Positions 39,725-41,265 of a stretch of DNA of 64,000 nt are shown here, piece by piece. Positions within the stretch are counted from its first letter, which is position 1. Every line of letters begins with the position of its first letter. The notes below the pieces were generated by a model that saw only the letters and a program-made list of their open reading frames with translations, was not told where the DNA came from and made no database searches. The stretch is taken from NCBI GenBank assembly GCA_049679255.1, contig JBAUFS010000124.1:1676-65675 (forward strand), read 5' to 3'. Made by a program: the position numbers and the translations under genes. This stretch comes from Candidatus Rhabdochlamydia sp. GTDB taxonomy: Bacteria > Chlamydiota > Chlamydiia > Chlamydiales > Rhabdochlamydiaceae.

Positions 39725-40354
39725 ATGACATTTATAGGTAACTACAATCCCTTGTCTTGTGATAATTATCTTAATGCTGGAAACTATTTCCAAAAACAGC
39801 TCTCAAATCATTCAAACCTGGTTATACGCACAGCTCTTGTATTTGCAAAAATTGTGGGAAGAGGACAGGATGTGCTTATACACGCAGGTTTAGGATCTAT
39901 TAAATTAATGGCTAGCCTAGCAATGGCTATTTATTCTATTCCGGCTTCTGCATTTGATTATATCCCCACACATCACAAAATTGCTAAACAAGCGTCAAGG
40001 CATTTTGGCCTAGCCTTGTTTTTTACGGCAGATATTCCCCTCTCTTTAGCCAATATTTTAAAAATGTACCCTAAACCTTTTTGTAAAAAAATCCAACGAA
40101 CACTTAGAGTATCTCCTACTGAACTTGCTTTTGAGCCGCTTATTGATGGTTTACATACAAATGTTGGCACCTTATCTGAAATGCAAGGAGGCCTATATAG
40201 AAAAACCTGTCAAGAAAAAGAACAACTAAAACAAGAAAACAAACAGCTAAAACAAGAAAATGCGGAACTCTTGCAAAAATATACAAATCTTCTTCAAACT
40301 AACCTAGAGCATACAAGCTATCAAATAGCACAAGAAGAAGCCCTTTGTAGTTAA
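39725..40354 (+). CDS. Paralogous family member 4: conserved N-terminal domain, then short coiled coil
   Basis: DVLIHAGLGSIK...HFGLALFFTADIPLSLANILKMYP; EQLKQENKQLKQENAEL. Confidence 0.78.
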   Translation: MTFIGNYNPLSCDNYLNAGNYFQKQLSNHSNLVIRTALVFAKIVGRGQDVLIHAGLGSIKLMASLAMAIYSIPASAFDYIPTHHKIAKQASRHFGLALFFTADIPLSLANILKMYPKPFCKKIQRTLRVSPTELAFEPLIDGLHTNVGTLSEMQGGLYRKTCQEKEQLKQENKQLKQENAELLQKYTNLLQTNLEHTSYQIAQEEALCS

Positions 40355-41265
40355 AGCCTCTTAGTAATGACTATGACAAGAGCCTTATCCCCTTTATAGT
40401 ACTTGCAGTTATCAGGCACTTTGATCAATATCTGTTTTTCTTGATAATCAAGATAGGGATTAGCAATGATTTCAGAAAAGCGAGGGTCTATCAGCTTTGA
40501 ATTAGGATCGCTTAAAAAACAAGAGAACCGCGATCCATTGCGCATATGAGAGGCTAAACAAGGCTGAAGAAAAGCAAATAAACGATCAGAGGGCCCTTGA
40601 AAGTTAAAGGGTTGTTTTTCAGAAGGCTCTTTCAAATGCATATTGTGCTTTTTTGCTAGTCTCTCGAATTGTTGCTTAGTGATTTGTTTATTGTTATAGA
40701 GTTGTTGTAGAAAAATAACCAGTTGCTCTTCTGGCTCCGATGTAACCGTTTTTACAAAATTATCCAGGTCTTGGTCGGAGTACTTTTGTGTAGAGAGGTT
40801 AGGGAATTGTTGATTAATCTCTTTAATAAGCAATTCAGCTTGTTTTACAATAAGAGAAGACTCTTGGCTTTCTTTTTCTATTTTTTCTAAATACTGCTGA
40901 CTTTCTAAGGGATAATCGTCAAAAAAAATACAATCGAATACTCCTAAACTTTTAAGAGCGTTTTGCCAAGTATCTTCAATAATTGTGACATGGGAATATT
41001 TTTTTGCAAAATCGCGCGCTTTTTGCGCAATTAAAGGATGGTATTCAATGATCGTATGCGATTTAGGTTTATAGGATTGAATGTGAGAGGCGGAGTATCC
41101 TAGTCCAAAACCTATTTCTAAGACATCCCCAAAAGGCTGTAATTCATCAATACAGGCCTGCATGTAAGGTTTTTCCCATTCCATCATTACTTGAAATGTA
41201 TCTTCTTTTAATAAAATTTCCTTGCCGTTTTCATCGTGATCATAGAGCATTTTGCAAAAAATCAT
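40351..41265 (-). CDS. RMT2/GAMT-like SAM-dependent methyltransferase
   Basis: VMMEWEKPYM, VLEIGFGLG, HTIIEYHP and FDCIFFDDY are typical of the guanidinoacetate/Rmt2 methyltransferase family. Confidence 0.85.
   Translation of the reverse strand: MIFCKMLYDHDENGKEILLKEDTFQVMMEWEKPYMQACIDELQPFGDVLEIGFGLGYSASHIQSYKPKSHTIIEYHPLIAQKARDFAKKYSHVTIIEDTWQNALKSLGVFDCIFFDDYPLESQQYLEKIEKESQESSLIVKQAELLIKEINQQFPNLSTQKYSDQDLDNFVKTVTSEPEEQLVIFLQQLYNNKQITKQQFERLAKKHNMHLKEPSEKQPFNFQGPSDRLFAFLQPCLASHMRNGSRFSCFLSDPNSKLIDPRFSEIIANPYLDYQEKQILIKVPDNCKYYKGDKALVIVITKRL

Follow-up and report, generated by a model that had tools for sequence, protein, structure and literature searches.

Does a methyltransferase gene lodged within the type III secretion system (T3SS) locus of an environmental chlamydia encode an effector aimed at the host, or a conserved bacterial enzyme? 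The question is raised by a gene in a 64,000-nucleotide stretch of Candidatus Rhabdochlamydia sp. DNA (contig JBAUFS010000124.1 of assembly GCA_049679255.1; hereafter the window), which encodes a protein of 304 amino acids (aa). The first-pass annotation of this DNA had called the product a eukaryote-type RMT2/GAMT methyltransferase, after yeast Rmt2, a protein arginine N5 (delta-N) methyltransferase, and guanidinoacetate methyltransferase (GAMT, EC 2.1.1.2). From the position of the gene it had proposed a secreted arginine methyltransferase acting on host proteins. Our analyses supported that interpretation in part, and pointed to a conserved bacterial enzyme rather than to an effector secreted to act on the host. 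We put at about 0.55 the probability that the protein is a cytoplasmic, non-secreted S-adenosylmethionine (SAM)-dependent guanidino-N methyltransferase, probably with a small cationic acceptor.

The window protein is a member of the GAMT/Rmt2 superfamily of methyltransferases (PF27704). Pfam and NCBIfam scans of the protein itself returned generic methyltransferase matches only; PF27704 (PF27704.1, GuanidinoAc_N-MeTrfase) is precomputed on all of its close homologues, including the R. porcellionis orthologue, and likewise on all Rmt2 orthologues. The family assignment is already present in current Pfam and in some source annotations. A phmmer search against all PDB sequences identified GAMT as the sole significant match (human 3orh, E 3.1e-13; rat, about 3e-12), spanning residues 25–125 and with a weak echo of the C-terminal P-x-x-C-x-Y-Y motif. 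In BLASTP, 123 aa aligned with Saccharomyces cerevisiae Rmt2 (P0376 in our set) at 33% identity (E 1e-15). With 77 homologues as input, AlphaFold2 produced a model with a mean predicted local distance difference test score (pLDDT) of 87 and a predicted template modeling (TM) score of 0.72. When this model was searched against the PDB with Foldseek, GAMT structures came first (E 1.6e-10 to 4.7e-9; GAMT-normalised TM 0.70–0.74), followed at lower ranks by generic class I methyltransferases (1e-6) and spermidine synthases (about 6e-6), so that the modelled fold was a class I Rossmann methyltransferase fold closest to that of GAMT. The best fold match in BFVD was a "putative guanidinoacetate methyltransferase" from an uncultured marine phage (E 1.4e-13, TM 0.80).

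All four motifs quoted in the first-pass annotation were found, VMMEWE at residues 26–31, VLEIGFGLG, HTIIEYHP at 70–77 (quoted as HTIIExHP) and FDCIFFD at 110–116 (quoted as FDxIFFD), and they aligned with the corresponding segments of GAMT and Rmt2. For GAMT, the human sequence used in the alignments was identical to 3orh_A. The N-terminal half of the core (residues 1–120) was 37% identical to human GAMT residues 41–142. Glu31 corresponds to GAMT Glu45 (rat numbering), which reportedly, according to Komoto et al. in 2004, has a role at the guanidino site. Asp116 aligned with GAMT Asp134 (rat), the proton acceptor in the GAMT mechanism (PMC12471008). The adjacent Asp117 replaces the Thr found in GAMT and Rmt2; the Asp is invariant here and in the nearest relatives, and it marks a third branch of the family. 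Beyond these residues, G52 and G54 in SAM motif I (LEIGFGLG) matched human GAMT G68 and G70, E74 matched E90, the beta5 strand GSRFSCFLS matched GGVLTYCNLTS, and C287-x-Y289 matched C220-x-Y222, the last pair lying in a motif, VPDNCKYY, held in common with GAMT (PPADCRYY). These equivalents, among them E31, E74, D116, G52/G54 and C287/Y289, were invariant in the 77 homologues.

The N-terminus proved to be part of this catalytic core. Unstructured, poorly conserved N-terminal residues, some 20–30 in number, are typical of type III secretion signals, although they are not strictly required. The window protein was instead structured and conserved from near its start: residues 6–28 were confidently modelled as strands 6–10, 16–20 and 24–28 (pLDDT 83–91), forming a beta-meander of the catalytic domain, and this lid had invariant positions at M6, D11, G14, L18, K20 and Q25. 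The free N-terminus that would suit an effector was therefore not present, a result that lowers the effector reading.

A helical insert of about 90 aa interrupting the Rossmann fold had also been described in the first-pass annotation, and the model bore this out, with the insert at residues 121–227, between beta4 and alphaD. In P0140, the closest insert-less relative, 19 residues lie between the same anchors, giving a net insertion of about 88 aa. The modelled insert comprised a long helix (123–153), short helices at 164–173, 179–191 and 197–206, and a poorly conserved loop (207–227); a model of the insert on its own reproduced the same secondary elements (pLDDT 75). The insert interrupts the Rossmann fold next to the acceptor side of the active site. 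The ratio of non-synonymous to synonymous substitution rates (dN/dS) among Rhabdochlamydia orthologues was 0.04–0.10 for the core, 0.04–0.13 for the insert helices and 0.09–0.87 for the loop. The insert was identified in every homologue of the window type, with Y162, F185 and L189 invariant and D164, D166, Q194, I195 and Q199 nearly so. These data indicated that the insert is conserved across Chlamydiota and under purifying selection.

Searches for relatives of the insert detected none. A profile of the insert run against the PDB matched only a His-tag artefact and CtsR (E 0.14), a fold search with the insert-only model had a best E of 2.7, and weak winged-helix Pfam matches were scattered inconsistently over a few members. 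A likeness of the insert to the HrpJ/SctW/MxiC gatekeepers was rejected as chance, as the window protein matched HrpJ at E 0.26 and MxiC at E 0.83, and the HrpJ match was repeated in only four of 77 homologues (best E 0.069).

Relatives recovered by an exhaustive profile search numbered at least 2000, with 279 scoring below 1e-30, and we distinguished three classes among them. Class I, the window type, is found in Chlamydiota and has intact catalytic residues, the insert and the N-terminal lid. Class II, from Chlamydiales where named, has degenerate catalysis (D116 is often Asn and E31 often Lys) and keeps the insert; the lid and the C-x-Y motif are lost, and the class consists of many fast-diverging clusters. 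Class III has intact catalytic residues and no insert, is 205–230 aa long, and comes from marine metagenomes, at least 498 IMG/VR contigs, Pythium, Lagenidium and a dinoflagellate.

A neighbor-joining tree of 196 core columns, which included a single GAMT sequence (human) and had weak internal support, grouped all three classes together (bootstrap 65) and separated them from Rmt2 (86) and from human GAMT, with class II nested inside class I. Core identity of class I was 44% to class III, 41.5% to the oomycete and 40% to the dinoflagellate proteins, 30% to Rmt2 and 28.5% to GAMT. The window protein and the marine phage protein P0140 were 60% identical in the N-terminal half and 37% in the C-terminal half. 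Orthology to GAMT was not supported, as the protein fell in a separate clade and has the invariant Asp117 in place of the Thr of the D-T-Y-P motif. Orthology to Rmt2 was not supported either: the Rmt2 clade excluded the window protein, and the N-terminal domain of about 200 aa in Rmt2 was absent, the match beginning at residue 208 of Rmt2 and at residue 17 of the window protein. Based on sequence, we place the protein in a third, "DDYP" branch of PF27704, alongside proteins of marine phages, oomycetes and dinoflagellates. The superfamily named in the first-pass annotation thus stood, and the description as eukaryote-type did not, since the nearest non-chlamydial members are on contigs of marine tailed phages. 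The phylogenetic check suggested there likewise had a mixed outcome, in that the protein grouped with neither GAMT nor Rmt2, and no grouping with widespread, characterised bacterial small-molecule methyltransferases was seen.

To place the gene in its genomic setting we relied on a pattern-limited scan of one genome per species, which identified 71 methyltransferase loci. All were from Chlamydiota or from metagenome-assembled genomes (MAGs) labelled as members of the Planctomycetes-Verrucomicrobia-Chlamydiae (PVC) group, and none was from a genuine member of the Chlamydiaceae. About 40 of the 71, forming one Rhabdochlamydiaceae-like clade, had the arrangement pkn5, variable genes, methyltransferase, with the last divergent from sctC. 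The remaining 30 or so had no T3SS gene within 7 kb and fell into at least four other conserved contexts. Adjacency to sctC is accordingly confined to one clade and is not a feature of the family, so that the proposal of an effector on grounds of position was not supported. In five genomes of one deep clade the order was potA-potB-potC-potD-methyltransferase on one strand, with gaps of 2–18 bp or an overlap. Across the sctC-adjacent clade, identities were 50–56% for the methyltransferase, 52–56% for pkn5 and 45–55% for sctC, and the methyltransferase was conserved at 41–57% over family-level divergence. The gene evolves like core genes. Effector-like evolution was not seen: dN/dS was 0.04–0.13 and the rate resembled that of pkn5 and sctC, while the neighboring effector-like open reading frames (ORFs) were undetectable outside the genus. 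The potABCD operon was the only operonic context found for the family. One locus (L020, CAMAVL010000068.1) was on a 9-kb MAG contig labelled Chlamydia trachomatis; this label is almost certainly wrong, because its methyltransferase was only 55%, and its sctC only 43%, identical to those of the window.

In the reading that we prefer, the Glu31/Asp116 pair, which aligns with the GAMT residues, would hold and deprotonate a guanidino group, and a guanidino nitrogen would be methylated, as with GAMT and Rmt2. Chlamydiota would have gained the helical module between beta4 and alphaD, which probably serves as a cap or a docking element and determines the choice of acceptor or partner. As the acceptor, a host protein appears less likely than a small, cationic guanidino compound resembling arginine or agmatine. 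Four points suggest this: Asp117 is an invariant additional acid, the protein is compact and GAMT-like with a lid at its N-terminus, one clade has the gene in the potABCD operon, and insert-less relatives are widespread as auxiliary genes of phages. Transcription would start from the gene's own promoter, divergently from sctC, and the place of the gene in the T3SS locus would represent the inherited gene order of one clade rather than a functional link. Secretion of the protein is unlikely.

Several points weigh against this assignment. Rmt2, a protein arginine methyltransferase, is as similar to the window protein as GAMT is, and a macromolecule-binding role would agree better than a small-molecule pocket with the large insert and with class II, which is degenerate but has the insert still. 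About 40 species-level genomes keep the gene next to sctC despite changes in what lies on its other side, and the link to the pot operon is restricted to five genomes of a single clade. The tree is a simple one, with one GAMT sequence and weak internal support, and the C-terminal half aligns poorly to GAMT and Rmt2. Finally, the acceptor is a prediction, here as for every member of the branch.

One alternative is that the protein is an Rmt2-like protein arginine (delta-N) methyltransferase retained in the bacterium, with a conserved chlamydial protein as substrate and the insert as a docking surface. The known substrate of Rmt2 is a ribosomal protein arginine, R67 of uL11 (Rpl12) in yeast (PMC10265986), so that a ribosomal protein, or else a component of the T3SS or of the Pkn5 pathway, could be imagined here. 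Such a role would agree with the similarity to Rmt2 at E 1e-15 and the common PF27704 assignment, with an insert that is conserved, constrained and without small-molecule precedent, with the retention of the insert and loss of the catalytic acids in class II (a pattern common among protein-binding pseudoenzymes), and with the stable divergent pairing with sctC, beside pkn5, in one clade. We nevertheless regard it as unlikely, although second in rank, because the protein neither groups with Rmt2 nor has its N-terminal domain, its insert-less relatives are minimal proteins (205–216 aa) from phage contigs, Rmt2 does not have the invariant second acid, Asp117, and the linkage to the T3SS is absent outside the one clade. 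A bolder variant, which we consider improbable, is a T3SS-linked, Rmt2-type delta-N arginine protein methyltransferase whose insert docks on a secretion-system or host target. The enzyme would then be exported, or would act on the export machinery or the Pkn5 pathway. If true, it would be the first bacterial Rmt2-type member with a protein substrate and the first arginine-methylating T3SS effector or regulator.

That the protein is itself a T3SS-secreted effector methylating arginine in host proteins, as first proposed, we consider very improbable. The gene does lie inside a T3SS locus beside fast-evolving, effector-like ORFs, its superfamily is best known from eukaryotes, its depth in a host transcriptome was similar to that of sctC, and chlamydiae secrete a methyltransferase effector of another fold, NUE (PMC2904774). 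These points are outweighed by T3SS adjacency being clade-specific, by the presence of the same gene in the potABCD operon and other housekeeping contexts elsewhere, by closest relatives in phages of marine bacteria, and by phylum-wide conservation under strong purifying selection, in addition to the ordered N-terminus and the chance nature of the HrpJ/MxiC echoes in the insert. The least probable of the readings considered here is a polyamine-directed enzyme, either an amine N-methyltransferase or aminopropyltransferase-like. It would draw on the potABCD operon, the acidic D-D pair after beta4, and the occurrence of spermidine/spermine synthases among the fold matches (query-normalised TM 0.44–0.50). 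GAMT was, however, more than four orders of magnitude ahead of the spermidine synthases in the fold search (1.6e-10 versus about 6e-6), Pfam and NCBIfam gave no hit to spermidine synthase families, motif I is of the usual SAM type, and the protein retains the guanidino-binding Glu and the C-x-Y of GAMT and Rmt2.

Among known systems, GAMT (PDB 3orh, 1xcj, 1khh) is the best solved-structure match by both sequence and fold, and resembles the window protein in motif I, the guanidino-site Glu and Asp, the C-terminal P-x-x-C-x-Y-Y, the N-terminal lid and the compact single domain. It differs in its low core identity (about 28.5%) and separate clade, in having Thr135 at the position of the invariant Asp, in lacking the insert between beta4 and alphaD, and in that no amidinotransferase partner gene was seen near the window gene. 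Yeast Rmt2 has in common with the protein PF27704 and the VMM-WE, IGFG and H-x-I-x-E motifs; unlike it, Rmt2 has the N-terminal domain of about 200 aa, DT in place of DD, and no insert at this position. The marine phage "putative guanidinoacetate methyltransferase" (UniProt A0A8D9CBY1; P0140) and its kin are the closest non-chlamydial relatives and have the DDYP motif, and differ in being insert-less, 205–216 aa long, encoded by tailed phages and usually found beside 2-oxoglutarate (2OG)-Fe(II) oxygenases. NUE (CT737) of C. trachomatis, a chlamydial methyltransferase with eukaryote-like affinities, was the precedent behind the effector idea. It has a SET fold and lysine chemistry, and its type III secretion has been shown experimentally.

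A literature search turned up no publication dealing with GAMT-like genes of Chlamydiae or Rhabdochlamydia. New here are a subfamily that bears the insert, its connection with the branch of phage and protist proteins, derivatives with degenerate catalysis, and the T3SS and pot-operon contexts, each specific to a clade. Provided that the assignment holds, an unstudied, conserved guanidino-type methyltransferase with a phylum-specific insert is present in most environmental Chlamydiota, and the family ties together the marine phage "GAMT" gene, the oomycete and dinoflagellate proteins and the large set of degenerate chlamydial derivatives. Identifying the acceptor for any one member would probably account for all of these groups, and would show whether the phage gene makes creatine. 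For T3SS biology there is a caution, in that location within a secretion locus is not evidence for an effector.

Table 1. Coordinates of the methyltransferase gene, its parts and its neighbors in the window, and of related loci on other contigs.
Feature	Location	Strand	Remarks
Methyltransferase coding sequence (GAMT/Rmt2 superfamily, PF27704; SAM-dependent; class I)	40351–41265	-	304 aa, ATG start, complete; catalytic residues intact, insert present
N-terminal half of core, residues 1–120	40906–41265	-	Beta-meander lid 6–28, Glu31, SAM motif I, Glu74, beta4 with DDYP
Glu31 codon	41173–41175	-	Equivalent to GAMT Glu45 (rat) / Glu46 (human); invariant in family
SAM-binding motif I VLEIGFGLG, residues 48–56	41098–41124	-	G52, G54 invariant
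D116-D117-Y118-P119	40909–40920	-	D116 aligns with GAMT catalytic base Asp134 (rat) / D135 (human)
Helical insert, residues 121–227	40585–40905	-	Between beta4 (110–115) and alphaD (228–240)
C-terminal half of core, residues 228–304 and stop	40351–40584	-	AlphaD, beta5 GSRFSCFLS, VPDNCKYY
Shine-Dalgarno AGGA	41272–41275	-	6 nt before methyltransferase ATG, read from sequence
Promoter-like site TTTACA-17-TAAAAT	41349–41377	-	10/12; in 140-bp divergent region shared with sctC; descriptive only
sctC/cdsC secretin	41406–44999	+	1197 aa; divergently transcribed neighbor
pkn5-type Ser/Thr kinase with PP2C-like domain	34512–36083	+	Directly abuts the methyltransferase in several relatives
Three tandem paralogous ORFs	37261–38142; 38385–39617; 39725–40354	+	
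PD-(D/E)XK family transposase gene	28050–28979	+	Just upstream of sctN
AbiEii/AbiEi toxin-antitoxin pair	49777–51248	-	A few kb downstream of the T3SS cluster
potABCD-operon loci	L043 2519–7942; L057 3214–7906; L060 3215–7906; L066 3221–7849; L068 93–2547		
Insert-less P0144 (MCX6990541.1)	L071 7001–7567		
Phage class III loci (on L074–L153, IMG/VR), examples	L076 5001–5651; L083 4983–5621		Proteins 205–216 aa
Class II genes, examples	L154 8001–8867; L155 8001–8873; L156 8001–8801		Proteins 250–290 aa
Unannotated neighbors of class II genes	L154 7075–8004; L155 8878–9840; L156 8801–9721		About 310 aa

The relatives outside class I had features of their own. The phage contigs belong to tailed phages, judging by their genes for a major head protein, adaptor, tail fibre, DNA polymerase and ribonucleotide reductase. 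Genes for 2OG-Fe(II) oxygenases were within 5 kb of the methyltransferase gene in 45 (PF13759) and 44 (PF13640) of 80 phage loci, some as immediate neighbors, and some phage methyltransferases had additional domains fused at the C-terminus (P0211, P0236, P0268). Among cultured phages in GenBank none had an insert-less relative, and there was only a partial match in one uncultured phage of 635 kb. A 2024 survey reported "GAMT" (KEGG K00542) as the most virus-enriched marine auxiliary metabolic gene, at 85-fold (PMC11360552). The oomycete and dinoflagellate members of the DDYP branch include P0256 (Pythium insidiosum, KAJ0403863.1), P0235 (Lagenidium giganteum, DAZ97463.1), P0238 (Ansanella granifera), P0145, P0191 and P0260; in some, the C-terminal tail is long, the end is rich in Ser/Arg or domains are duplicated in tandem.

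An unannotated protein of about 310 aa was encoded directly beside the class II gene in all three cases examined. The three neighbors were 46–51% identical to one another and had an invariant H-x-D...H pattern; their identification as 2OG-Fe(II) oxygenases was unsupported by Pfam, by the PDB and by hhalign against the phage oxygenases. In one Chlamydiota MAG, the P0144 cluster represents an insert-less, 205-aa version in the same pkn5/sctC position, which is without the C-terminal C-x-Y motif. Because it nests inside the insert-bearing group on the tree, P0144 appears to have lost the insert secondarily, and it looks like a natural deletion of that element.

In the window the order of genes is sctN, sctO, sctQ, pkn5, an unannotated ORF (orf369) and the three paralogous ORFs, all on the plus strand, then the methyltransferase on the minus strand and sctC on the plus strand, which confirms the location given in the first-pass annotation, antisense between an effector-like array and cdsC/sctC. 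The 3' end of the methyltransferase ORF overlaps the stop of the last, convergent paralogous ORF by 4 nt, and a gap of 140 bp separates the gene from sctC. Promoter-like sites in that gap were not above the level in shuffled sequences (7 versus 4.3 +/- 1.7). The window protein was 92–96% identical to its counterparts in R. porcellionis, strain T3358 and related MAGs, and a soil-metagenome run contained the gene at 100% of sampled words. The gene is likely expressed: in a host-transcriptome run, one 1925-nt contig, from a related strain at about 89% identity, spanned it completely and reached 48 nt before the ATG, with a word depth of 91 versus 73 for the sctC contig, depths that are only supportive of expression since transcriptome contigs are directionless and may contain DNA.

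The three paralogous ORFs had no Pfam match. They have a common N-terminal region of about 130 aa with hydrophobic segments, resembling an inclusion-membrane protein, and C-termini that are unrelated to one another and either rich in charged residues or coiled coil. They diverge fast, at 46–77% identity within the genus. The slot between pkn5 and the methyltransferase was filled by different genes in different relatives, as in a variable insertion site within the T3SS locus. The SctC secretin is unusually long, with five Secretin_N repeats before the secretin domain. The T3SS cluster is flanked by the transposase gene on one side and the toxin-antitoxin pair on the other (Table 1).

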